Virus record (IMG/VR): IMGVR_UViG_3300047560_002175
Coordinates: 64,001-128,000 of that record
DNA from: a virus
Lineage: Duplodnaviria; Heunggongvirae; Uroviricota; Caudoviricetes
DNA: 64,000 nucleotides
Strand: one strand, 5' to 3'
Shown: positions 594 through 35,830 of the stretch, in pieces
Layout of the letters: each line of letters begins with the position of its first letter
How positions within the stretch are numbered: position 1 is the stretch's first letter
Notes under the pieces: model-generated
Told to the model about the DNA's origin: nothing
What the model saw: only the letters and a program-made list of their open reading frames with translations
Databases searched by the model: none
Position numbers and translations under genes: made by a program

Positions 594-621
594 ATTATAA
601 TTTCTTTTTATCTTTTGTCAA
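594..621 (-). promoter_or_regulatory. sigma70-like early promoter
   Basis: minus strand TTGACA-N16-TATAAT. Confidence 0.65.
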
Positions 622-639
622 GCTTTTTTTTAAAATTAT

Positions 640-713
640 TGGAGCGGGATACGAGACTCGAACTCGTTTGGATAGCTTGGAAGGCTATTGCACAACCTAT
701 ATGCCAATCCCGC
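640..713 (-). tRNA. tRNA-Gly(TCC)
   Basis: GCGGGAT acceptor, anticodon arm ATAGC-CTTCCAA-GCTAT, GTTCGAGT T-loop, U73, encoded CCA. Confidence 0.93.
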
Positions 714-725
714 AGATGATATAAC

Positions 726-780
726 TGGATGCATTTTTAGTTTCACCAATTGAAATATTAAAAATGGCTGTTAGCATCCA
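726..780 (-). ncRNA. ACAGCA-box hairpin RNA (minimal family member 1)
   Basis: TGGATGC/GCATCCA terminal stem, TAACAGCC box, inner ATTTTTA/TAAAAAT and TTTCA/TGAAA stems. Confidence 0.6.
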
Positions 781-806
781 AAAATTGTTGTATGCGAACA
801 CTAAAC

Positions 807-858
807 TGAATGCATTTACTTTCGCCAATGAAATTAAAAGTTATGCTGTTAGCATTCA
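807..858 (-). ncRNA. ACAGCA-box hairpin RNA (minimal member 2)
   Basis: TGAATGC/GCATTCA stem, TAACAGCA box; paralog of 726-780. Confidence 0.6.
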
Positions 859-884
859 AAAACTATAGTATTCGCGTACTATGT

Positions 885-961
885 TGGTCGGGGTAACACG
901 ATTTGAACATGCGACCTATCCGCCCCAAACGGATCGCTCTACCAAGCTGAGCTATACCCCG
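885..961 (-). tRNA. tRNA-Pro(TGG)
   Basis: CGGGGTA acceptor, ATCCG-TTTGGGG-CGGAT anticodon arm, CCA end. Confidence 0.95.
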
Positions 962-969
962 GTAATTCT

Positions 970-1371
970 TTATAACAATTTTAAATGACCTGTTACTGGG
1001 TCAATCTTCTCAGGATAGTCTGGACCTATTGCTAAACATGTTAGAGTTGGGACTCCATTAAATTCAGTCAATCCTGCATCTTTAATTAGTTTTGTATTTA
1101 ATCCATGTTCTAATGCTTCTGAGAAAATATTAAGCAATTCTGCTTCACTATTTACATAAACACAGACTTTTTTAAATCTACCTCTAAGCCATTCTTCAAC
1201 TGGCTTGTTTACAGCTAAATTATAATAAGCATCTTTGTCTGCAGTTGCAGGATACATTTGCCCATAATTTAAAATTGCACCTAGTGAAGCATGGCTAGTT
1301 TGAGCAACGATTTTACCTTTACGCATGTTAAGGTCTTTTCGTACTACTATTACTTGTTTAGGTTCTGACAT
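970..1371 (-). CDS. pth2: peptidyl-tRNA hydrolase, Pth2 family
   Basis: KQVIVVRKDLNMRKGKIVAQTSHA, KKVCV, DAGLTEF, TCLAIGP motifs. Confidence 0.93.
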   Translation of the reverse strand: MSEPKQVIVVRKDLNMRKGKIVAQTSHASLGAILNYGQMYPATADKDAYYNLAVNKPVEEWLRGRFKKVCVYVNSEAELLNIFSEALEHGLNTKLIKDAGLTEFNGVPTLTCLAIGPDYPEKIDPVTGHLKLL

Positions 1372-1374
1372 ATA

Positions 1375-1746
1375 TTATTCACAATTCCATCTACGTCTTG
1401 CTTTACAAATTGGTTTATCTGGATTAGATGAACAATCTATATGATGCATTTTCTTTTGTCCATTTGATCTTGCACAAAAACTTTTACGACGTTTTGAATC
1501 TTTACTACCTTTCTTTAATTTACTTGGATCGGTAGTTACTGCTGTTTTTAATTTTGATCCTGGATTTTCTTTTCGATAAGCACTAACTGCTTTTTTACTC
1601 ATTCCATCAGTACCATCTTTTTTATTTACTGATTGCCAATCTTCATTAGCAGGAACACAGTTAGGAACTGTTTTTTTATTCTTCTTTTTGGTACCAACTT
1701 GTTTGTACCCTTTCCAACACGGATCTGTTATTTCAAAAATTTTCAT
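1375..1746 (-). CDS. basic phage protein with MKIxEI N-terminus, probable virion-internal protein
   Basis: MKIFEIT start; CWKGY..VPNCV and KTAVT..RRKSFCAR motifs recalled from T4-like phage hypotheticals; TAAATA late promoter and GAGG upstream. Confidence 0.65.
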   Translation of the reverse strand: MKIFEITDPCWKGYKQVGTKKKNKKTVPNCVPANEDWQSVNKKDGTDGMSKKAVSAYRKENPGSKLKTAVTTDPSKLKKGSKDSKRRKSFCARSNGQKKMHHIDCSSNPDKPICKARRRWNCE

Positions 1747-1789
1747 ATTGTTGCCTCACTTTTATAGTATTTAGTGAAGCAACACTATA

Positions 1790-2059
1790 TTATTTTAACA
1801 TTGCTTTATCAAACAAGCTGTTTAATTTGGTATTGTAATCATTAAACTTGCCATCAAGTAATTTACAATGATTTAAGCATTGTTCTTGTTGTTGTGATAG
1901 AATACTTACTTTACCTTCAACTTCTGTAACTTCTTTTACAATTGCAGTATCGTGAGCTTCAAGTTTTGAAACACGACCTGTTACTGCATCTAAATCACCA
2001 GTTGATGCACAACCAGTTACAAGTACAGCTAATGCTGAAATTAAAAATAATTGTTTCAT
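1790..2059 (-). CDS. Lpp/OprI-like coiled-coil lipoprotein
   Basis: signal peptide with lipobox LVTGC followed by a heptad-rich helix. Confidence 0.65.
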   Translation of the reverse strand: MKQLFLISALAVLVTGCASTGDLDAVTGRVSKLEAHDTAIVKEVTEVEGKVSILSQQQEQCLNHCKLLDGKFNDYNTKLNSLFDKAMLK

Positions 2060-2079
2060 TTCTTTTCCTCTTTGTTATA

Positions 2080-2169
2080 TGGCGGAAGAAGTGAGATTCG
2101 AACTCACGGACGGGACTAACCGTCGACAGTTTTCAAGACTGCTGCTTTAAGCCACTCAGCCACTCTTCC
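2080..2169 (-). tRNA. tRNA-Ser(TGA)
   Basis: GGAAGAG acceptor, GCAGT-CTTGAAA-ACTGT, long variable arm, G73, CCA. Confidence 0.95.
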
Positions 2170-2178
2170 TGTTTATTT

Positions 2179-2265
2179 TGGCGGAAGGTATAGGGTTCGA
2201 ACCTATACAACGGTTACCCGTTGACAGATTAGCAATCTGCTCCATTACCATTCTGGCAACCTTCC
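2179..2265 (-). tRNA. tRNA-Ser(GCT)
   Basis: GGAAGGT acceptor, GCAGA-TTGCTAA-TCTGT, long variable arm, G73, CCA. Confidence 0.95.
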
Positions 2266-2273
2266 TAACTATC

Positions 2274-2348
2274 TGGAGCCTCTTCCCAGAATCGAACTGA
2301 GATCTAAAGATTACAAGTCAATTGTAATAACCATTATACTAAAGAGGC
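2274..2348 (-). tRNA. tRNA-Thr(TGT)
   Basis: GCCTCTT acceptor, CTTGTAA loop, GTTCGATT T-loop, CCA; anticodon stem has two T-T mismatches. Confidence 0.82.
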
Positions 2349-2463
2349 AATAACTATTATTAAAGCATCTTTTATTTAGTGCTTTAATAATAGCTATCAT
2401 TTAAAAATGACAACTATTATCTAGGAAGATCCTATGTTAAAAAAACCTGGTACTATTTTGTTG

Positions 2464-2766
<303 letters not shown>

Positions 2767-2770
2767 CTTT

Positions 2771-3427
2771 TTATTTTTGTGAAAGTTGCATTGCAACGAG
2801 TCTATCTAAACCAATAGCAACTTCAAACACCATACCGTGTTCCCAGTCTTTTCTTACAGAACAACCTGCAACTTCCAAATCACCCATCATCCAATCTAAT
2901 GTTTTTTCGGAATAGTGGGGCAGTTCATCAGCTTCTACAATACGGCCGCCGTAAGCATTAGTTAATGCTTCTAATGCAGTTTCAATATACGGTGCTTTTG
3001 TATCATTACCGCAAAACAACTGGAATTCTAATTGGTAAAACTGTACTAAACGTAACTTACTAGCTCGCATTGTTTCAGCGTTGACTTCGTCTCTAAACGA
3101 TAAACCAACTTGCCACAAGCAAAGCGGAAGTTCTTTAACATTAAAGTTTGGGTGTAAAATGTTAAATGCTTCAAAAGTACCTGCAGTAGTTTCTGGACGC
3201 AAATAACCACGTTTTGTCTCAATTAGTTCAAACCCTACATCAATGTGCGATTGCAACGTTGCAGCAGGAGTTAGAATTGGTGTTTCTACACGCGCCATTC
3301 GTACTGCTCTGTTTAGCTTGTTCCATTCACTGTACAACAAATGCGGAATTTCTCTAATTAGTGTTTCACGTCGGATAATTTCCTGTTCATTCCACATTAC
3401 AGTCGCATTTGAAAAACATTTTTGCAT
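2771..3427 (-). CDS. glycyl-tRNA synthetase-like class II aaRS catalytic core (no anticodon-binding domain)
   Basis: LRPETTAGTF, motif 2 QVGLSFRDE..LRLVQFYQLEFQ, motif 3 EVAIGLDRL; only 218 aa. Confidence 0.8.
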   Translation of the reverse strand: MQKCFSNATVMWNEQEIIRRETLIREIPHLLYSEWNKLNRAVRMARVETPILTPAATLQSHIDVGFELIETKRGYLRPETTAGTFEAFNILHPNFNVKELPLCLWQVGLSFRDEVNAETMRASKLRLVQFYQLEFQLFCGNDTKAPYIETALEALTNAYGGRIVEADELPHYSEKTLDWMMGDLEVAGCSVRKDWEHGMVFEVAIGLDRLVAMQLSQK

Positions 3428-3457
3428 AGTAGCTCCTACTAGTTAATTAAAATAAAC

Positions 3458-3485
3458 ATTATACACTAAAATATTAAGATGTCAA
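3458..3485 (-). promoter_or_regulatory. sigma70-like early promoter
   Basis: TTGACA-N16-TATAAT upstream of the GlyRS-like gene. Confidence 0.65.
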
Positions 3486-3512
3486 CTATTACTACATCCT
3501 AATAAACTTGTT

Positions 3513-3589
3513 TGGCTGGATAGGCAGGGCTCGAACCTGCGACCCGCTGATTAACAGTCAACTGCTACTACCAACTGAGCTACTATCCA
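3513..3589 (-). tRNA. tRNA-Asn(GTT)
   Basis: TGGATAG acceptor, GTTGA-CTGTTAA-TCAGC, G73, CCA. Confidence 0.95.
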
Positions 3590-3624
3590 ATAAATCTTTT
3601 AACTACTTATTTATCTTCGTTATT

Positions 3625-3701
3625 TGGTGGGCCACCCGGGACTTGAACCCGGAACCTGCCGATTATGAGTCGGATGCTCTAACCAATTGAGCTAAAGGCC
3701 C
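3625..3701 (-). tRNA. tRNA-Ile2(CAT) (lysidine type) or elongator Met
   Basis: GGGCCTT acceptor, TCCGA-CTCATAA-TCGGC; resembles the E. coli ileX pattern. Confidence 0.88.
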
Positions 3702-3712
3702 TTAATAAATAT

Positions 3713-3860
3713 ACCTAAGGATGGATTCGAACCATCACCTCCTCGGATTTGCAAGGCAATTCTGTTGCGCCTAACCATATCGCGTTTATGGTATCATTGG
3801 CATTACAGGTTGTGGACGTGTATCAATAACGTCTGCTCTAACCAATTGAGCTACTTAGGT
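3713..3860 (-). ncRNA. long tRNA-like RNA with expanded central domain
   Basis: ACCTAAG/CTTAGGT acceptor, canonical D arm TAGCTCAATTGGTTAGAGC and T arm GATGG-TTCGAAT-CCATC, ~75 extra nt, no encoded CCA. Confidence 0.65.
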
Positions 3861-3865
3861 GTAAC

Positions 3866-3940
3866 TGGCGTCGCTACGGGGAATTGAACCCCGGTTGCAA
3901 GGATGAAAACCTTGTGTCCTAACCACTAGACGATAGCGAC
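3866..3940 (-). tRNA. tRNA-Glu(TTC)
   Basis: GTCGCTA acceptor, CAAGG-TTTTCAT-CCTTG, G73, CCA. Confidence 0.95.
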
Positions 3941-3943
3941 AAA

Positions 3944-4050
3944 TTATATTAAAACACACTACTACACGGAATCGAACCGTATCACTGACTCCGCGCCAGC
4001 TAGTGTTCCACACCCACGTTGATCAAACGCTGTAATGTGTTTAAATATAA
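3944..4050 (-). ncRNA. degenerate tRNA-like element inside a long AT-rich terminal stem
   Basis: T arm TACGG-TTCGATT-CCGTG, mini D arm CGTT/AACG, 3-nt anticodon loop, variable-like arm CTGGC/GTCAG. Confidence 0.5.
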
Positions 4051-4060
4051 CAACTTTAAC

Positions 4061-4145
4061 AGAATAGCTTGCTCAACCATTGAGCTTTATCGCTAAGATA
4101 GCAATAATGGAATCGAACCATTAAATAATTTGCTGTGACTATTCT
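4061..4145 (-). ncRNA. YrlA/Y-RNA-like circularly permuted tRNA mimic (ACAGCA family)
   Basis: AGAATAG stem, TCACAGCA box, T arm AATGG-TTCGATT-CCATT, looped acceptor ATTGCTA-TCT-TAGCGAT, D arm GCTC-AATGGTT-GAGC, CTATTCT. Confidence 0.75.
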
Positions 4146-4154
4146 TTATTAAAC

Positions 4155-4210
4155 AGGATAGAATTTATTTCAGATTAAGAGTCCAATTTAAATTATGCTG
4201 TTACTATCCT
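4155..4210 (-). ncRNA. ACAGCA-box hairpin RNA (minimal member) capped by an anticodon-like loop
   Basis: AGGATAG/CTATCCT stem, TAACAGCA box, TTGGA-CTCTTAA-TCTGA. Confidence 0.6.
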
Positions 4211-4214
4211 AAAC

Positions 4215-4288
4215 TGGCAGTCCCTGCAGGTATCGAACCTACGCTAGCAGAATCAAAATCTGCTGTGCTACCATTACACCAAGGAACA
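4215..4288 (-). tRNA. tRNA-Gln(TTG)
   Basis: GCAGA-TTTTGAT-TCTGC anticodon arm, 1-72 mismatch, G73, CCA. Confidence 0.92.
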
Positions 4289-4295
4289 CTAATAT

Positions 4296-4381
4296 TGGTG
4301 GTTGCTGTTAGATTCGAACTAACGAAGCACTAAGGCGACAGATTTACAGTCTGCTGGTTTTAACCACTCACCCAAACAACC
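4296..4381 (-). tRNA. tRNA-Tyr(GTA)
   Basis: GGTTGTT acceptor, GCAGA-CTGTAAA-TCTGT, long variable arm, A73, CCA. Confidence 0.95.
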
Positions 4382-4392
4382 ATGTTCTTTAT

Positions 4393-4626
4393 TTATACAA
4401 GTTCTTGATCGTTATGTGCAGTTTCGACTAAGTCTAATACACCTAACTTTCTCAAACGTTTTTCTAAAACTTTCAATCTATTTCTAATCTTAGATTTGTC
4501 ACGTGGACGACCTGTTTTTTCAAGTAACTCTTTAACTTGTGCTAAGTTTAAAGGTTTAAGTCTTGGGCGACCGTTACGTGTTAGTTTAGGATTAGCTGTT
4601 CTGTTTGCTTTACTAATTGTAGACAT
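4393..4626 (-). CDS. small basic hypothetical protein
   Basis: 77-aa Arg/Lys-rich ORF overlapping the stop of the upstream gene. Confidence 0.6.
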   Translation of the reverse strand: MSTISKANRTANPKLTRNGRPRLKPLNLAQVKELLEKTGRPRDKSKIRNRLKVLEKRLRKLGVLDLVETAHNDQELV

Positions 4627-4978
4627 GTTTTTCCTTTACTTTATTAATCATAGTGGTTAGCTGTTCATTAGTAAAATGATCAGGAACATTTATATGAAAA
4701 ATGTTTCTGCCATCTTGTTTTTCAACTTGAACAATATCCTTAGTTTCTTCTACATCAATGTTTTCTACAAGTTCAATTGAAGTTGTATTTGACATTATAA
4801 CTAAGTTTGCAGGTTCTACATGTTTAGCAAACGTAGTCTTAATATTTTCCATATATTCCATAGCATGTCTTGCTGGCATATTACCTACATCAACTTTAAC
4901 TATTAGAATACTGTTTTCAGTTAGTTTTTGCTTATCTAAAATCTGTATTGAATTTTCACTTAATTCTATTGTTTGCAT
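4613..4978 (-). CDS. hypothetical protein
   Basis: 121-aa ORF directly after a sigma70-like promoter. Confidence 0.6.
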   Translation of the reverse strand: MQTIELSENSIQILDKQKLTENSILIVKVDVGNMPARHAMEYMENIKTTFAKHVEPANLVIMSNTTSIELVENIDVEETKDIVQVEKQDGRNIFHINVPDHFTNEQLTTMINKVKEKHVYN

Positions 4979-4995
4979 ATTTGCCTTTGTTATTT

Positions 4996-5037
4996 AGTAT
5001 GTGTATATTATACACGTTTAAAACTAGTTGTCAAGTA
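4996..5037 (-). promoter_or_regulatory. sigma70-like promoter (related to the 7085-7126 and 15800-15841 copies)
   Basis: TTGACA-N16-TATAAT with shared flanks. Confidence 0.7.
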
Positions 5038-5324
5038 AATAATTTTTGTATTCTTGTTTAATTAAATCTTCAATAGCAGCACTTACATCAATACCATTTG
5101 GATTATTCATATCTTCTTTTGCTTCTTGAGTGACATTTGTTTCAAAAAACTTATCACGCCATTCTGCATAATCTAACTTATTTGCCATGTTTCTTAAAAT
5201 CCTTAACTAAATGTTTAAGAATGTCGTGCTCAAGATTGATATGTGCAGTAATATTTTTAGTAGGTTCAAATGTCCATTTACCGTTTAACTTACGAGGTTT
5301 TTTTGGTAATTTAGTTTTCATTCT

Positions 5325-5507
5325 TTATCCTTTGTTTTTAAATTCTGCTGCAACATCGTCAATTGTTGCGTGATTGCCATGTGAATTAGAAATAAATTCT
5401 TCTTTTGGTTCTTCTTTTTCTTTTTTATTAAATATCTTATCCCAGTTTTCATCAAACTGTGATTTGCTAATGCCTAATGGGCGCATTCTACTACCTTTGC
5501 CTGCCAT
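5325..5507 (-). CDS. hypothetical phage protein
   Basis: MAGKGSRMRP..FDENWDKIF; GGAG SD. Confidence 0.6.
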   Translation of the reverse strand: MAGKGSRMRPLGISKSQFDENWDKIFNKKEKEEPKEEFISNSHGNHATIDDVAAEFKNKG

Positions 5508-5529
5508 AAAATCTCCTTAACGTATAGAT

Positions 5530-5730
5530 TTAACCCCATGTTAAACCTACAAGCATTGAATGTTTAGGATCTTTAAACTGCATCCTAACCTCTCCTTGAA
5601 AACAATGCCATTTGTAATCTTGATTATGTATCCAACCTTTTTCTCTACACCATTTTGATATTTCTAATCCTTTAGCAAAATTACCTGGTATTGTTACATA
5701 TCCATTTTCGTGTGCGTAATCTGTATTCAT
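5530..5730 (-). CDS. small protein of the F-x-D...W C-terminal paralog family
   Basis: ends FKDPKHSMLVGLTWG, like the ORFs at 15842-16936. Confidence 0.55.
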   Translation of the reverse strand: MNTDYAHENGYVTIPGNFAKGLEISKWCREKGWIHNQDYKWHCFQGEVRMQFKDPKHSMLVGLTWG

Positions 5731-5753
5731 ATTTTTATTTGTAAGGTTGTTGC

Positions 5754-5816
5754 AGGATGGGATTGAGCTTTTTTAGATCCAAATTCTAACGCTTAATTGT
5801 TTGCAGTTACCATCCT
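5754..5816 (-). ncRNA. ACAGCA-box hairpin RNA (minimal member)
   Basis: AGGATGG/CCATCCT stem, TAACTGCA box. Confidence 0.55.
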
Positions 5817-5830
5817 AAAACTTGTTTATC

Positions 5831-5956
5831 AGAATGCATTTTAATTTTCCAGCGCGTCTACTACTTTCGCCATATGCGTTATTCAACGCATAGTAGGATT
5901 TGCACCTACACGTTATAAAACACTGGATTCCATTAAAAGTATGCAGTTAGCATTCT
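5831..5956 (-). ncRNA. YrlA-like circularly permuted tRNA mimic, Leu-type (ACAGCA family)
   Basis: AGAATGC stem, TAACTGCA, TCCAG, variable arm, T arm GTAGG-TGCAAAT-CCTAC, looped acceptor TATGCGT/ACGCATA, D arm GCG-AAAGTAGTAGA-CGC, CTGGA, GCATTCT. Confidence 0.75.
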
Positions 5957-5960
5957 ATTT

Positions 5961-6036
5961 TGGTTGCGAAGGGTTGGAATCGAACCAACGTCCTCTGGGT
6001 TATGAGCCCAGCTATCTACCACTGATATACCTCGCA
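5961..6036 (-). tRNA. tRNA-fMet(CAT), initiator-like
   Basis: CTGGG-CTCATAA-CCCAG (three G-C pairs), weak T1-A72 pair, CCA. Confidence 0.88.
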
Positions 6037-6047
6037 TAATGTAAAAC

Positions 6048-6165
6048 AGGATCCGTTTAATATCGCGCTCTAACCGTTAAGCTAACTGCTATATACATAG
6101 CAGTGTAGGATTCGAACCTACATCACGTGCTCCAAATGCAAATTATTGTATGCTGTTTAGATCCT
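6048..6165 (-). ncRNA. YrlA-like circularly permuted tRNA mimic (ACAGCA family)
   Basis: AGGATCT stem, AAACAGCA, T arm GTAGG-TTCGAAT-CCTAC, looped acceptor ACTGCTAT-GTAT-ATAGCAGT, D arm GCTT-AACGGTTA-GAGC, GGATCCT. Confidence 0.78.
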
Positions 6166-6179
6166 AAAACTTTTAAAAC

Positions 6180-6417
6180 TTATTAAAAAGAACCCAGTAA
6201 AGTTTTGGTTTCATCGAGTTGCTGCGGTCAACGTTTTACAGACGCCCTTTACTAGTTCCGCCTACATGACTACTATAGTAACTAGAATCGAAGTACTGTA
6301 AATACCCGAAACTCTCACTCGTTACCAGTTCGAGTCTATAACTCCCAAAATGTTATTTTTCCATATAACATTATGACCTTTCGGAACTGTTTTCAGTAGT
6401 TAGGTTCTTTTTAATAA
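6180..6417. ncRNA. candidate 238-nt structured RNA closed by a perfect 15-bp inverted repeat
   Basis: TTATTAAAAAGAACC / GGTTCTTTTTAATAA ends; internal hairpins; no ORF. Confidence 0.5.
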
Positions 6418-6427
6418 ATTCTTTAAC

Positions 6428-6498
6428 AGGTTCCACAAAGTGGGCAAATGTACGGAACATCTTTTCCGTAAGTCTGCAATAATTGCTGTAGGAAACCT
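6428..6498 (-). ncRNA. ACAGCA-box hairpin RNA (minimal member)
   Basis: AGGTTTCC/GGAACCT stem, TACAGCAA box, inner TACGGAA/TTCCGTA hairpin. Confidence 0.6.
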
Positions 6499-6511
6499 AA
6501 AACTATTTAAC

Positions 6512-6563
6512 AGAATGTATTTAGTCATATTTCAAAATGAATTAAAGTTGCTGCAAACATTCT
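6512..6563 (-). ncRNA. ACAGCA-box hairpin RNA (minimal member)
   Basis: AGAATGT/ACATTCT stem, TTGCAGCAA box. Confidence 0.55.
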
Positions 6564-6634
6564 ATAAACATATTGTACTACATTTTTACTACTGTGTCAA
6601 GCATTTTTTAATTTTTTTACAAGGAGTTTTTAAC

Positions 6635-6747
6635 AGGTTTCACAGTCTTTAGTCAATTACTCTACCAGCTGAGCTAACTGCTCTTGCGAGCAGTGCAGGA
6701 TTCGAACCTGCGACACGTTGATTGAAATTGTTTGCTGTAGGAAACCT
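6635..6747 (-). ncRNA. YrlA-like circularly permuted tRNA mimic (ACAGCA family)
   Basis: AGGTTTC stem, CTACAGCA, TCAAT, T arm GCAGG-TTCGAAT-CCTGC, acceptor ACTGCTC-GCAA-GAGCAGT (GNRA loop), D arm GCTC-AGCTGGTA-GAGT, ATTGA, GAAACCT. Confidence 0.8.
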
Positions 6748-7084: not shown

Positions 7085-7126
7085 AGTATGTGTATATTAT
7101 ACACTAATAAAACAGTTTGTCAAGTA
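7085..7126 (-). promoter_or_regulatory. sigma70-like promoter, 41/42-nt copy of 15800-15841
   Basis: TTGACA-N16-TATAAT. Confidence 0.7.
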
Positions 7127-7194: not shown

Positions 7195-7656
7195 CTAACC
7201 TCCTAGGAATATTTCTCTCATTTCGTTTATGTTGCGTGTAGTTAGACCAATGGCGCCATCTACATGTACAAAGCGTGATTTTTGATAATCAAGCATATCT
7301 GATGTATCATCAAGGATTACATAATTATAATCTTCATTATGTTCTTGCAACCATTTTTCTATTTCGTAACCACGATCCCAACCTTTTTTTGAAAAATCAG
7401 GATCACTTTGTCTAGTCTGTGGAGTTACACCAATAATACGTGTTCTACAACAAAATCCTGCACGATACAATATCTCTTTCATTTCTTGCAAGCTATGTAG
7501 AATACGCCAAGAAGAACTTATTACGATTTCACAATCAACTTCTTCACAAAATACTCTAAGCATTACAAGTTTATTGTTTATTAAATGAATGCCTTCAGCC
7601 AGACTGGCGTCGTTGTTAAGGACGCCATCGATATCTAAGAATAGTAATCGTTTCAT
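7195..7656 (-). CDS. HAD-superfamily phosphatase (RNA-repair-associated HAD domain)
   Basis: FLDIDGVLN, IVISSSWR, RGYEIEKWL, YVILDD. Confidence 0.85.
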   Translation of the reverse strand: MKRLLFLDIDGVLNNDASLAEGIHLINNKLVMLRVFCEEVDCEIVISSSWRILHSLQEMKEILYRAGFCCRTRIIGVTPQTRQSDPDFSKKGWDRGYEIEKWLQEHNEDYNYVILDDTSDMLDYQKSRFVHVDGAIGLTTRNINEMREIFLGG

Positions 7657-8284: not shown

Positions 8285-9385
8285 TTAGATTTCCTCCTGT
8301 GTTAAGAACCAGTTACGTGCTACATATTTAACTCGAGACATAACATCTTTAATGTCAAGCTCGCTTGCAACTAAAGTATCAGTTTCTTCTTTAACAACAT
8401 CATCAGAGATCCATTTTAAGAAAACCGGAATGCTTTTAGGTTCGATACTAATATTGTTACATTTCAAATATTCTAAACCTTGATTAAGTCTAGATTCAGT
8501 TACAACAGTTTCAGCAAACTCGTTAATAGAATTAACTTTTTCAATATCAACACTTGCTAGTGTTTTAACTTTAGATGAACTGTGTTTTTCACCTTTAACT
8601 TTAAACATAAAGCGTGAGCTGTTATATCCAGGAGTAACACATTGCCAAACAATACCTTCACCTACACCTGTTACGCCAAATTGTTTAGCAATTGGACAAT
8701 TTTGTTCTACTTCAACAGTAAGTTCACCGAGTTTGTTTTGTGCAAGCTCAGGCTGATTGAAATCAATTTCCATTGTGTATGTTTTAAAATCATACTTAGT
8801 AAATAAGTTGTCAGGGAAATCTAACCCGCGGAAGCCAACAATTTCTTTAGCGTATTCTACTGTTCGTTTAACTTGTTCAGCAGTAAAGTAAATACGAGTT
8901 TGTTCGCTTGTTGCTGGATCAACATGTGCGTCCCATGCAACAATACCAAAGATGATAAACATTTTAGGTACTTCACTAATACCTACACCTTTTTGTACGC
9001 CTTGTCCGCACCATTCACCAAAGATAGAATAATGTGTCAATGTACCTTCGTGAAAAGTGTTTGAAGCAGCTACTAATAAACTTTCAAATGCAGCGCGGTG
9101 TTTTACTGTGTAAGCAGCCCAACCAAAGTTGTCATTTACAACAGTTAAAATACGTTCGCGTGATTGAGCCCAAAAATCATGTAATTTAGTTGATTCGCAA
9201 GTAACACTAGCATTAGTGCCATGTGCCTTAACAGAACCTTCAAACGTTAAAGTTGGCATAGGTGCAAAGCGATCAATAATTGGATTGCCATCTGCATCTA
9301 ATCCTTTAAAGCTTGAACGACTTTTAACTTCCTTAACCACTTGTCTAAATTGATTGATACTTGGCCATGACATGTGTTTTTGCAT
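8285..9385 (-). CDS. RNA ligase, Rnl2-like nucleotidyltransferase
   Basis: motif I KAHGTNA, IFGEWCGQGVQKG, GEGIVW, FKVKGEKH. Confidence 0.82.
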   Translation of the reverse strand: MQKHMSWPSINQFRQVVKEVKSRSSFKGLDADGNPIIDRFAPMPTLTFEGSVKAHGTNASVTCESTKLHDFWAQSRERILTVVNDNFGWAAYTVKHRAAFESLLVAASNTFHEGTLTHYSIFGEWCGQGVQKGVGISEVPKMFIIFGIVAWDAHVDPATSEQTRIYFTAEQVKRTVEYAKEIVGFRGLDFPDNLFTKYDFKTYTMEIDFNQPELAQNKLGELTVEVEQNCPIAKQFGVTGVGEGIVWQCVTPGYNSSRFMFKVKGEKHSSSKVKTLASVDIEKVNSINEFAETVVTESRLNQGLEYLKCNNISIEPKSIPVFLKWISDDVVKEETDTLVASELDIKDVMSRVKYVARNWFLTQEEI

Positions 9386-10993: not shown

Positions 10994-11316
10994 CGTGGAA
11001 ATACAGGTTCGTTACAAAAAGCATCACAACTTTCTAATCCTGCAGGTGGATCAGGAAGTTCATATAGTGATTTTAATGGAGGTGGAGGATTAAATCCAGT
11101 CATTCCGTTTTGATTGCGATATTGCGGTTTGTGTGGTGGAAGAGGAGGGGACATCGTCTTAAACGGATGCCCGTCAACAATACGTTTCATAGCATCACGG
11201 TGTTCCATCAATGCTATGCGTGTTTCACCGTGATCTATATACATTATTTCATATCTCAACTTTTCTAATGTTGAATTGATATAATCGTATGATTCTTGTG
11301 TTAAGTTTTGATTCAT
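10960..11316 (-). CDS. proline-rich hypothetical protein
   Basis: 118-aa ORF overlapping both neighbours. Confidence 0.5.
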   Translation of the reverse strand: MNQNLTQESYDYINSTLEKLRYEIMYIDHGETRIALMEHRDAMKRIVDGHPFKTMSPPLPPHKPQYRNQNGMTGFNPPPPLKSLYELPDPPAGLESCDAFCNEPVFPRWMYTLIGRLK

Positions 11317-12623
11317 AGTCCACCTAATGCGCGTAATCGAATAGTATCTAAACTATCATCAATCAACAGCTTACCATTGTGATAATATGTTTCTAATTGG
11401 TATTCTTCAAATCTACCACCTTGTGATTTTTTACCTGGATCAGTAACTGGATTTTTAACAGTATCAATCCATTCATCATTGATTTTCATTGCAGAAGTTT
11501 TCTGTGCAAATGAATAAGTATCACGATTCACTTTTTGTAATAAACCACCACCACTGCCATATACAAGTGTTTCAGCTGCATAGCCAAGTTCTTTAACCAT
11601 GTGTGCTAATGCTTTCATAGATGCAGTATCAATACCATCACCTTGAATTAAACTAACATTGTTAAGCACTTTGTAGCCTTTAGAGTTTACAGTATGTCCA
11701 AACCAGTAATCAATAACATTAAGTAATTTTGGTATTACTACTAATGGATTACCTGAGTCTGGTCGGATAACAACTTTAATACCACTTTGTTTAATAATGT
11801 GTACAAAGTGTGAACACAATGCTTCAGTATCGCGATAAATGTCATAACCATCAAGTACAATTGAAACTATATCACCTTTTGCCATATCGTGTAGAATAGA
11901 TGAAATATATTCCATTTGTTTATCATTGCCATAAGAGCATTGAACGCTGTGTTCAGTAGCAGGAATTGAGTAACCTGGCATTTTACAATTATAATACTTA
12001 CGGCTAGCAGCAATTGATGCTAAGTTGTCAGTACCTCTAAAGTAAATTAAGTGAGCTAATCCACCCATCTCTGCAGTCTCATATGAGCTTACACCGCGAG
12101 CGCCAAAGTCATGTAATGCAAATTGTAAGTTTGCTAGGTTATCAGAAGTTTCATCGTACACTTCTTTAAGTATTGCATAGTTCTCACGATCATTTGAAGC
12201 AATAGTACTTGGATACCAAACATCACGTTGCAACCATGATTCAATGTAAGATGGCAACCAGTACAACTCTGGATCGTTTGATTCAACTGTAAGAATTGGA
12301 GTTTGTGATGGAGTAGGTGTGCCTTCTAGCACTGCTTTAATAGTAACAGGCAAGTAACCACCGTGTACATCATGAATTCTCTCCCATCCTGCGTAATTAA
12401 ATGGTAATCCATGTTCAGTAAGAATCTGTTCTGCTTCAATAACATCTTCCCATTTAATTGGTTTTAGCAGATTCTTTTTAATTGCCATCTGCAAGCCAAA
12501 TGGTACGATTGTTTTACCTGGCTTTCTTGCTGACAAGTAAGCAAATTGAGCAGAAGTACCAGCTGGGTACCATGCATAGTGACTGGCTTTGTAAGAGTCG
12601 GCATTAAGAATAATATTAGACAT
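11313..12623 (-). CDS. nadV: nicotinamide phosphoribosyltransferase (NAMPT/NadV)
   Basis: ADSYKASH, LHDFGARG, IPATEHSV, VIRPDSGNP, IQGDGI, GSGGGLLQKVNRDT. Confidence 0.95.
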   Translation of the reverse strand: MSNIILNADSYKASHYAWYPAGTSAQFAYLSARKPGKTIVPFGLQMAIKKNLLKPIKWEDVIEAEQILTEHGLPFNYAGWERIHDVHGGYLPVTIKAVLEGTPTPSQTPILTVESNDPELYWLPSYIESWLQRDVWYPSTIASNDRENYAILKEVYDETSDNLANLQFALHDFGARGVSSYETAEMGGLAHLIYFRGTDNLASIAASRKYYNCKMPGYSIPATEHSVQCSYGNDKQMEYISSILHDMAKGDIVSIVLDGYDIYRDTEALCSHFVHIIKQSGIKVVIRPDSGNPLVVIPKLLNVIDYWFGHTVNSKGYKVLNNVSLIQGDGIDTASMKALAHMVKELGYAAETLVYGSGGGLLQKVNRDTYSFAQKTSAMKINDEWIDTVKNPVTDPGKKSQGGRFEEYQLETYYHNGKLLIDDSLDTIRLRALGGL

Positions 12624-12633
12624 TGTTACCTCG

Positions 12634-13575
12634 TTATTTCAAATTAAATTTTATCTTAGCAAATGTATTAGTCATTGAGCTAATAATATCTCTATGATCA
12701 TGGAACATATCTAAGTCGTTAAGTACAGTAGTTAATGGAAACCATTGTGCATCAATTGCATCGTCATTGGCTACTGTTTGCATAGGTTCATCAACTACAA
12801 ACATTTTACAGTATGTAACTCTAAGAATACCACCGCTGTCTCGACGTACTGAATCAAACAACTGAGTCTTGTATGCTATGCTACTGACAGTAATACCTGT
12901 TTCTTCTAGTAGTTCGCGATCAGCGCATTGATCAAATGTTTCATTAGCATTCTTAAATCCGCCTGGCAATGCCCATTTGTTTTTACCTGGAGCAGTTTTT
13001 CTTTTAATTAGTAAAACTTGATTGTCATTAGTTATTACTAATGCATCACTACAACAAAATGTAAGTGTTTCTGGAAACGGATAACTTGCAAACATCTGTT
13101 TCTCGTTTTTAAAATAGTTGTAGTCTTCTTGTGCTAGTTCAGGTAATTGATTATTTTCTGCTAGTTCAGTTCTAATTTGTGTACCTGAAATAGTTGAAAC
13201 TGGATCAACTTCTATGTATTCAAATCCTTGAAACCAAGACAAGTATAAGTTATCTGGTTTAGTATGTCCATATAAGCAAACGTCGTGATCTTCTGAATGC
13301 ATACGAATAATATAACATGTTTGCGATATCCATTTGTTATCATTATACAAGTAGTCGTTAAGTGGTTCCACAATAACATTAGGAAACTTCTGTTTAACAT
13401 TGTCATGTCGTTCTGCATAGGACCATGGATTCTTAATAGTATTTGATTGATTAGCTGAACCAATTAAAACTAATTGTTTATCAGTATTTTTAATCATAGT
13501 CTGTATGATTAGTTCGTGTCCTTCATGCATTGGTTGTAATCTACCAATAAAAACACCTAATTTAGGTTTTATCAT
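12634..13575 (-). CDS. bifunctional NMN adenylyltransferase / Nudix hydrolase (NadM-Nudix/NatV-like)
   Basis: GRLQPMHEGH (HxGH) and Nudix box PGGFKNANETFDQCADRELLEETG. Confidence 0.93.
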   Translation of the reverse strand: MIKPKLGVFIGRLQPMHEGHELIIQTMIKNTDKQLVLIGSANQSNTIKNPWSYAERHDNVKQKFPNVIVEPLNDYLYNDNKWISQTCYIIRMHSEDHDVCLYGHTKPDNLYLSWFQGFEYIEVDPVSTISGTQIRTELAENNQLPELAQEDYNYFKNEKQMFASYPFPETLTFCCSDALVITNDNQVLLIKRKTAPGKNKWALPGGFKNANETFDQCADRELLEETGITVSSIAYKTQLFDSVRRDSGGILRVTYCKMFVVDEPMQTVANDDAIDAQWFPLTTVLNDLDMFHDHRDIISSMTNTFAKIKFNLK

Positions 13576-15362: not shown

Positions 15363-15384
15363 AAATCCTCCTAACGTATGTTAT

Positions 15385-15412
15385 GAAAAAGCACCCCGGA
15401 GGGTGCTTAGTT
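15385..15412 (-). terminator. intrinsic terminator after the tmRNA coding piece
   Basis: AAGCACCC-TCCG-GGGTGCTTTTT on the minus strand. Confidence 0.75.
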
Positions 15413-15757
15413 GTATTTTGGTTAACAAGGCATACATGCCCCGGAGGGGTAGGTTATTAAGCTACCATGTCAGCTGCTTCCAAAGAGAAGTCAACTGTCA
15501 TATACTCGAATTTAGATGCTTTTGCGTCTATAAGTTTTGCGCTGTTTAGGACAGTCACCTCACCTGTTGCCGTCTCCATTATCTCACCCAATCGAAACCA
15601 TGACAGCCCCATTATAAAACACACTAGCACTTCCCTTTTAGGGGGCAGGAAGTTTATGGCTATGGCCCCACTCTAATACCTCTAATGTGTTTTATGGTGG
15701 AACTGGGGGGAGTCGAACCCCCGTCTTGAATGCCTTCACTTTGAAGGAATTACAACA
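15413..15757 (-). ncRNA. ssrA: two-piece (circularly permuted) tmRNA
   Basis: acceptor piece GGGGG-TTCGACT-CCCCC-CAGTTCC-A-CCA ends at 15695; 84-nt intervening segment; coding piece starts GGGGCTGTCATGGTTTCGA at 15610 (G3:U70); tag ORF 15525-15457 AKASKFEYMTVDFSLEAADMVA*. Confidence 0.88.
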
Positions 15758-15799
15758 ATAATAAGAACACTAATAAATCTAATGTTCTTATTATTATTT

Positions 15800-34514: not shown

Positions 34515-34745
34515 TCATTCGTTAGCTGATTGTTTACGTTTCTTAATAACCTTCTTTGCTCTCCAACCAATGTGGAACCAATGACGTGCTATCATAAAAT
34601 TAGAAGAAGGTTTAAGAGCATCCTCATCTAACTCAATCAACTGATGTTCGCACAAGCTCTTAAAATACTTCCACTGTTTATCTGTAAGTGGTCCTTGAAG
34701 TTGTTTATCTAATTGTTTTTCTAAATCTTTTTTCATTAAATGCAC
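34515..34745 (-). CDS. hypothetical protein
   Basis: 76-aa coupled ORF. Confidence 0.5.
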   Translation of the reverse strand: MHLMKKDLEKQLDKQLQGPLTDKQWKYFKSLCEHQLIELDEDALKPSSNFMIARHWFHIGWRAKKVIKKRKQSANE

Positions 34746-35830
34746 TCCCGTGAATATTCATGTAAATGGTTGTTTAAAAAGTATTTGGCATACGCAGGTT
34801 CTTGACCTTTAAACTTCATCATTAGTAGCCAAAATAGTGGATGTGTGTTGTATGTTAAAGCAAACTCTTTGAATTGACCAGTTTCGATACCGCAAGTTGC
34901 AACTGTAGTATTCACTTCTTCAATAATCTCAGAAAGTGTTTTATTAACTCGTGTTTCAATTGCAGATACTTTGTCAAACAAATCTAAATCGCCAACTGAT
35001 GTACAGTATGATTTAAAATCGTCTACAGTTTCGTCAATAACCATTTCGGCTATGTTTTTCTCTGTAGTAAATGTTACGCTGCCATGTAATGACAAATACC
35101 AAGCAGTTTTTAATTTAATCATTTCACCGTTATTAAACTGCATGACCCAACCTTCAATACCGGAAACTGTTGCTGCATCGTGTTTAATCTTATGAATATC
35201 AACATCAGAAAATACATCAACGATAGGAATATTCCAATCGTATGCATAATCTACAATTTCTTGACGAGTTGCATATTTGCCAGTTTCATTATGTCTAACT
35301 GCTAACAATACAAGCTCAGTTTCTTTATACGAAACTACAATACGATTACTTGGAGAAGTAATTTCAAATATTGGAGTATAGCCAAGTTTGCATAAGTGTA
35401 ACGAAAAGTTGTATTGTGGAGTATTAGGACCAAAGGTATCATTAACAAGTACTGCTGGATCTGATGTAAATGATCTTTTAGTTTTAAACTTAATAGTTTC
35501 ATCTTCAAATAAAACAGGACTAATCATAGATCCGTCACGTTTATCCATAAATGATGAAATTGTAGACCAATCAACATTTTTTTCTAATGTTGATTCACGT
35601 TCACCTAAGTTAAAAAATTTGTGTAACGGACGTGAAACTAATTTGCCGTTTCTATCAAATGTAATACCGCGGCATTCTCTTGCGTAAGGGTTTTGAAAAA
35701 CTTTACTATCTAAAATATAGTAAGACGCAATAGTATAACCACCAGGAACAGTTATAAATTCAATGCCAGGTATTTCACCTACATTAGCTTTAAACTCTTC
35801 TAAGTTAGTTATAGTTGGGAAAATGCTCAT
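34736..35830 (-). CDS. T4 Rnl1-like RNA ligase
   Basis: RECRGI, KFFNLGE, KRDGSMI, FEITSPSNRIVVSY, EGWV, MIKLKTAWY. Confidence 0.9.
   Translation of the reverse strand: MSIFPTITNLEEFKANVGEIPGIEFITVPGGYTIASYYILDSKVFQNPYARECRGITFDRNGKLVSRPLHKFFNLGERESTLEKNVDWSTISSFMDKRDGSMISPVLFEDETIKFKTKRSFTSDPAVLVNDTFGPNTPQYNFSLHLCKLGYTPIFEITSPSNRIVVSYKETELVLLAVRHNETGKYATRQEIVDYAYDWNIPIVDVFSDVDIHKIKHDAATVSGIEGWVMQFNNGEMIKLKTAWYLSLHGSVTFTTEKNIAEMVIDETVDDFKSYCTSVGDLDLFDKVSAIETRVNKTLSEIIEEVNTTVATCGIETGQFKEFALTYNTHPLFWLLMMKFKGQEPAYAKYFLNNHLHEYSRECI

Follow-up and report, generated by a model that had tools for sequence, protein, structure and literature searches.

The 64,000-nucleotide stretch analysed here (the window) belongs to the Caudoviricetes record IMGVR_UViG_3300047560_002175 and corresponds to positions 258,255–322,254 of a complete 372-kb jumbo phage record with terminal repeats. 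Near its start lies an island of 11 tRNA genes on the minus strand (window bases 640–6036), and in and beside this island are six short elements, at 726–780, 807–858, 4155–4210, 5754–5816, 6428–6498 and 6512–6563, which an original prediction had described from the sequence as minimal hairpins with a common terminal stem and an adjoining box. All six are present at these coordinates, and all are read on the minus strand. They are called handle RNAs below, the handle being their paired ends together with the box. The same strand carries, outside the window, the gene for P0001, a protein of 469 amino acids with the DUF2828 and DUF7788 domains and a predicted Ro60-like fold (L001:7897–9306, genome 255,896–257,305). 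This gene is located 1.7 kb downstream of 726–780 and 7.6 kb from the farthest copy of the handle.

In each of the six elements, a 7-bp helix joins both ends, with one G–U pair in 6428–6498. The order of the parts is the same throughout: after a U-rich lead-in come (A/U)G and five further bases, a spacer of three, the CWGCMW box, an interior that varies, the complement of the first seven bases and a G. The box was expected right after the 5´ strand and is found there as N3-CWGCMW, with its spacing fixed at 3 nt, while the GTT expected 3´ of the stem occurs in five of the six elements, 5754–5816 having GCA. Folded on their own, only two of the short elements do clearly better than shuffles (z −2.3 and −3.4). 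Since most of the six are unremarkable in folding energy, the case for the handle RNAs rests on covariation and not on stability.

A strict scan for the handle returned 10 matches in the 7.5-kb island, comprising nine handles and one chance match on a tRNA-Ser, against an expectation of 0.017 per shuffle (maximum 1 in 300 shuffles); five scattered matches were found in the remaining 365 kb of the genome. Tolerating one G–U pair or mismatch brings the number of handle copies to 11: the six short ones, four longer ones, each containing a permuted tRNA T/D domain, and a 142-nt one outside the window. The ten copies originally counted are thereby recovered, the other four being 4061–4145, 5831–5956, 6048–6165 and 6635–6747, and the eleventh (L001:9847–9988, minus strand) lies just before the first base of the window and 0.5 kb from the P0001 gene.

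The strict scan was designed from these same copies, and the independent test is the closure of half-sites, in which 5´ half-sites were picked by sequence alone to avoid circularity. Over 33 different 5´ strands, 179 of 205 half-sites located beside 80 homologues of P0001 were closed downstream by their own exact complement followed by G, compared with 3 of 205 upstream, 0 of 13 in antisense and 0.5% with swapped strands. The stems covary, and the box is conserved in relatives. The handle RNAs are almost certainly a real RNA family.

Terminal inverted repeats in AT-rich spacers are also what would be expected of intrinsic terminators, of inverted repeats acting as DNA or of decayed tRNA remnants. 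However, none of the six elements scores as an intrinsic terminator, and a U tract is missing from both strands. Furthermore, the box is confined to one arm and one strand, G–U pairing is tolerated, gene order is kept, as are the loops, with compensatory changes, and one copy starts at a conserved promoter. This explanation is already largely refuted and retains hardly any probability. The copy at the promoter is 6512–6563, whose 5´ end is found 6–8 nt after a conserved sigma70-type −10 box, both here and in seven relatives, so that a transcript probably begins with this copy. The promoter itself (6572–6600, minus strand, 11/12 positions) is a match to the consensus only, kept in seven close-relative records. 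Four perfect sigma70 consensus promoters with 16-nt spacers are also present on the minus strand, at window positions 594–621, 3458–3485, 5007–5034 and 7096–7123.

The interiors enclosed by the handle (the cargos) vary from copy to copy. The 56-nt element at 4155–4210, which begins 4 nt past the CCA of tRNA-Gln, displays the anticodon stem-loop of a tRNA-Lys(CUU); the loop is invariant in seven close-relative records and the stem occurs in four pairing variants. The 63-nt element at 5754–5816 has a 5-bp stem and a 7-nt loop reading A32-U33-UUG-G37 (Gln-like), and its counterpart in one relative has UCG in the same frame. In the 55-nt element at 726–780, the cargo is a hairpin whose stem has 4 bp and whose 7-nt loop is non-canonical. 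In close relatives, its syntenic copy keeps this stem but has loops that read Gly(UCC) or Lys(UUU), and a copy in locus L132 with an identical handle stem reads Gln(UUG). A related cargo is found in 807–858 (52 nt), with no canonical anticodon arm here and with orthologues that permit an alternative Glu(UUC)-like fold. The remaining two elements carry a conserved two-tier hairpin (6428–6498, 71 nt), shrunk to 36 nt in the counterpart of one relative, and a 4-bp stem with an 8-nt loop (6512–6563, 52 nt). The hairpins of 807–858, 6428–6498 and 6512–6563 are conserved, but they are not canonical anticodon arms. Two details of the original prediction have to be revised. The apical parts are not all unrelated, as a TTTC..TGG.GAAA hairpin is common to 726–780 and 807–858. 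The short copies were also said to be without the tRNA domain, which holds for the T/acceptor/D domain, absent from all six, but not for the anticodon arm, carried by at least two.

The four long neighbours of these elements, also on the minus strand, contain the permuted T/acceptor/D domain. In 4061–4145, 6048–6165 and 6635–6747 it takes the form of a tRNA elbow (in 4061–4145 made up of T arm, closed acceptor and D arm), and in 5831–5956 that of a tRNA-like domain with a variant T-loop. The cargo of the eleventh copy has a G-rich hairpin loop, which might pair with GCCC bases close to the 3´ strand (a possible pseudoknot), likewise in L002–L004. Between two handle RNAs, at window 6187–6410 (minus strand), there is also a structured element of about 225 nt, whose terminal helix is long and whose box is degenerate; this element is kept in L003 and L004. 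It has no Rfam match and, its box not being a proper one, was left out of the handle count.

A wider set of 286 distinct short cargos from related loci indicates what many short copies have in common. A 7-nt loop on at least five pairs is formed by 143 of them, compared with 27 after shuffling, and 9- and 10-nt loops are less enriched (72 and 66). Among 99 distinct arms, C32 is found in 53, U33 in 73, A37 in 67 and A38 in 68; A34 occurs in only 5, against a background of 44% A, and position 35 is almost free. Fully canonical arms number 48, with 20 anticodons covered and Lys(UUU) the commonest. G37 accompanies G36 in the mimic arms, a pairing of features found in real tRNAs. In 56 of 66 canonical loops the sequence is U36-A37 or A36-A37, which are the contexts of t6A and i6A modification. 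The rule Y32-U33-NNN-R37 on a 5-bp stem with a 7-nt loop is followed by 4155–4210 and is a signature of the family as a whole; 5754–5816 fits it save for A32, and the other four short copies fail it. The anticodon-arm signature in the cargos is selected, and the family splits the tRNA, with the elbow in long copies and the anticodon arm in many short ones. In L375 (reverse strand, position 4044), a 60-nt handle RNA has a lone T-arm-like hairpin as its cargo, which means that short copies can display other tRNA parts too.

P0001 is composed of PF11443 and PF25043, and TROVE (PF05731), the domain of Ro60 and Rsr, has no match anywhere in the complete genome. A sequence search of the PDB with P0001 gave no match, so that the link to Ro60 comes from structure alone. 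The AlphaFold model (pLDDT 95) retrieved Ro60 or Rsr in all of the first 13 PDB rows from Foldseek (E 8e-9 to 1e-5). Against 1YVP, the Xenopus Ro60–RNA complex, the model aligns over 415 residues with Z 21.4 and a root-mean-square deviation of 4.2, whereas vWA-only rows reach Z 10 (VIA). Identity between Ro60/Rsr and P0001 is 12–17% in the structural alignments. On the strength of this model, P0001 is predicted to have a Ro60-like ring fold. DUF2828 homologues are found in 711 phage records, including Felixounaviruses, KVP40, A511 and mycobacteriophages such as UPIE, as well as in giant viruses, and some of them carry the annotation 'Ro-like RNA binding protein'. A search of genome contigs, which reaches close relatives only, gave no relatives of P0001.

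The handle and the DUF2828 gene occur together. Among 80 viral loci retrieved with P0001 as the query, 341 handle matches lie on the strand of the gene and 21 on the opposite one, with 77 loci positive. In the reverse direction, with short loci anchored on the handle, a DUF2828 gene is present in 37 of 88; relatives anchored on the capsid were too fragmentary for co-occurrence. All seven cultured phages with DUF2828 (KVP40, SP116, A511, UPIE, NCTC12673, BUCT-ZZ01 and fHe-Yen9-04) have CAGCAA handles. No such handle was found in the scanned tRNA or Ro regions of T4, T5, S-PM2 and K, which lack any Ro gene, or in those of the TROVE-Ro phages Bxz1, CcrColossus and Jay2Jay. The association is a strong one, though not proof of binding. 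Together with the covarying stems and the conserved box, it supports the originally proposed modular family of handle plus cargo with a likely single protein partner. One exact handle pattern was also sought in prokaryote genomes, where it occurred in nine stretches, which are regarded as matches by chance or as binned phage contigs. Handle RNAs stand in head-to-tail tandem in four GVMAG giant-virus records (L097, L105, L126 and L143); in L097, a DUF2828 gene (24% identity) is transcribed divergently from the tandem, which lies some 160 bases upstream of it.

Two other accounts of this association have to be weighed. The handle might bind another phage or host protein, with DUF2828 merely a neighbour in tRNA islands. 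Both do sit in islands of translation and repair, and the Class I RNA of Dictyostelium has been reported to bind an RRM protein, Rnp1A (PMC7919456). However, the split of seven out of seven against none out of seven extends over unrelated phage families and hosts, a giant-virus contig repeats the pairing, and DUF2828 has a Y-RNA-binding fold, all of which makes this account very improbable. Alternatively, the handle could be a cis-acting site in a tRNA precursor or in the DUF2828 mRNA (a processing mark, a stabiliser or an autoregulatory operator) that releases no free RNA. Handle copies abut tRNA ends (at 4 nt and 12 nt) and are often directly upstream of the DUF2828 gene, as such a site would be. 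However, handles are absent from the tRNA clusters of T4, T5, S-PM2 and K. In UPIE they lie on the downstream side of the gene and there is no annotated tRNA within 2.5 kb, and in fHe-Yen9-04 they are 200 kb away from it, which argues against a purely cis role; the tandem arrays of giant viruses do not fit either, and a cut site has no need of a selected anticodon-arm cargo. A cis-acting site is therefore quite improbable, and the DUF2828 protein is predicted, with good probability, to be the partner that binds the handle.

By Rfam, the handle RNAs are not YrlA, Flavo-1 or Class I RNA. They resemble Ro60/Y RNA systems in that the RNA's 5´ end pairs with its 3´ end to give a stem and a Ro60-fold protein is encoded nearby, on the same strand and within about 4 kb. 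The Rsr-binding motif of YrlA-type Y RNA is GNCGAAN0-1G, near the 5´ end (PMC4201824); where YrlA and YrlB (RF02553) have this box, the handle RNAs have N3-CAGCAA. Moreover, the genome has eleven copies of the handle, and the short ones often bear an anticodon arm, a part not present in YrlA. Three of the long copies match the YrlA model well below its gathering score of 69, with 36.3 bits at best (6635–6747) and 26.9 and 25.8 bits for 4061–4145 and 6048–6165, and there is no match for the six short ones. Flavo-1 (RF01705), an early lead, has no match in the genome at E values up to 10.

A likeness in form is found in the dictyostelid Class I RNAs (RF01414; PMC7919456), which share with the handle RNAs a length of about 50–65 nt, a short covarying terminal stem, many copies, an unpaired motif containing ACAGCAA beside the 5´ strand, a variable interior, an (A)AG start and a CUGU end. 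The motif next to the stem is 11 nt long in Class I RNAs, and the box is one nucleotide nearer the stem in the handle RNAs. With the RF01414 model, two of the six short copies score 18.6 and 17.3 bits, which is in the background range, and 6635–6747 scores 21.3 bits via the box, the best scores being 17–21 bits against a gathering value of 41.5. Reports of Class I RNAs are confined to social amoebae, where they have a DUSE promoter and the RRM protein Rnp1A as partner (PMC7919456). The species 1 and 2 RNAs of T4 and the stable tRNA-like RNAs of T5 are, like the handles, small non-decoding RNAs inside phage tRNA clusters; T4 and T5 differ in having no handle in those clusters and no DUF2828 gene in their genomes. 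No description of the RNA family or of a DUF2828 ligand was found in a literature search that covered subscription journals thinly. The best reading is that the handle RNAs are non-canonical Y-like RNAs that would dock on a Ro60 paralogue, the DUF2828 protein.

The window encodes a PTH2 peptidyl-tRNA hydrolase (970–1371), a HAD RNA-repair phosphatase (7195–7656), two RNA ligases (8285–9385 and 34736–35830) and a NAMPT plus NMNAT-Nudix pair (11313–13575), which make up a neighbourhood of translation rescue and NAD salvage. A two-piece permuted transfer-messenger RNA (tmRNA) is located at 15366–15787 on the minus strand (RF04321 and RF01850, above threshold), and only tRNA and tmRNA pass the Rfam gathering level in the window. 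There is no tRNA-Lys among the ARAGORN calls for the genome. ARAGORN forces into an intron-bearing tRNA-Ala a tRNA-shaped RNA at window 3712–3860 (minus strand), which has acceptor, D and T arms and an enlarged middle. Right after an open reading frame of 218 amino acids resembling a class II tRNA synthetase (2771–3427), a non-coding segment at 2714–2762 (minus strand) matches positions 1093–1148 of the bacterial 23S rRNA model (29.8 bits, E 3.6e-6). The capsid gene of the phage is T4-like. Outside the window, at L001:1660–2430, there is a pmoC/amoC gene (PF04896, E 2e-121), from which this looks like a pmoC-carrying freshwater phage; the gene suggests a methanotroph host.

Building on a conserved and covarying handle that lies on one strand only, on the Ro60 fold and on the co-occurrence of gene and RNA, all obtained by computation, the following mechanism is proposed. 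The handle elements would be genes for small non-coding RNAs, transcribed together with the phage tRNAs and processed from the transcript. Their paired ends (the 7-bp helix) and the unpaired CAGCAA box would form a docking handle for the DUF2828 Ro60-like ring, by analogy with the Y-RNA stem on Ro60/Rsr. The handle would hold an exchangeable piece of tRNA, the T/D elbow in long copies and the anticodon arm in many short ones, and the particle would most likely present such pieces, in a form that is stable and not used in translation, to host proteins that recognise tRNA loops. The displayed pieces could then be a bait or competitive inhibitor for tRNA-cutting anti-phage nucleases. For YrlA, competitive inhibition of an anticodon nuclease has been proposed (PMC7790460), and a defence nuclease cuts anticodon stem-loops in isolation (PMC13692257). 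These two reports, the variety of the loops and the nearby repair enzymes are the reasons why bait or competitive inhibition is favoured. That the handle RNAs dock on the DUF2828 ring and display tRNA parts, probably as bait, is slightly favoured as the overall explanation; the bait role of the cargo, taken by itself, is tentative and falls somewhat short of an even chance.

The same Ro-like particle could work differently, with the cargo as an adaptor that tethers PNPase, RNA ligase or the t6A/i6A tRNA-modifying enzymes to the ring. Such a role is known for Yrn1 and YrlA in RYPER (PMC4201824) and for the phiLo Ro60–Yrl–PNPase system (PMC12135203). RNA ligases adjoin DUF2828 in A511 and fHe-Yen9-04 and are also encoded in this window, and the predominance of t6A and i6A contexts in the canonical loops would suit tethered modifying enzymes. 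However, a tether would not need 20 anticodons, nor differing loops at one syntenic position in close relatives, and the adaptor is considered unlikely.

Several points weigh against docking on the DUF2828 ring and display as bait. None of the 11 copies contains the canonical Rsr motif GNCGAAN0-1G. Good anticodon arms are limited to two of the six short elements, one of the others being degenerate and three not arms, and the preference for anticodons with U36 or A36 may partly reflect AT richness. The link to the partner consists of co-occurrence in related phages and in 14 hand-picked cultured ones, the negatives among which were scanned by region and not over whole genomes; because many of the sampled loci are kin, the counts overstate independence. 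The idea that the mimics cover anticodons that the phage does not encode was not supported, overlaps with its own tRNA set being 101 against 89 ± 5. With no avoidance of the phage's own tRNAs, a simple model of protecting what the phage does not encode is unsupported.

In its widest form, the proposal is that DUF2828 and the ACAGCAA-handle RNAs are a second Ro60/Y-RNA branch in hundreds of phages, displaying tRNA anticodon arms and elbows to neutralise tRNA-cutting defences, with loops swapped under selection and with the same handle at the origin of the dictyostelid Class I RNAs. As a whole, this remains doubtful. The handle is nevertheless a candidate ligand for DUF2828 proteins, including those of laboratory phages, and its likeness to the Class I RNAs of Dictyostelium gives a testable prediction for a field in which the function of these RNAs is open. 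If the anticodon arms are bait, they would constitute an RNA-based counter-defence against tRNA-cutting immunity.

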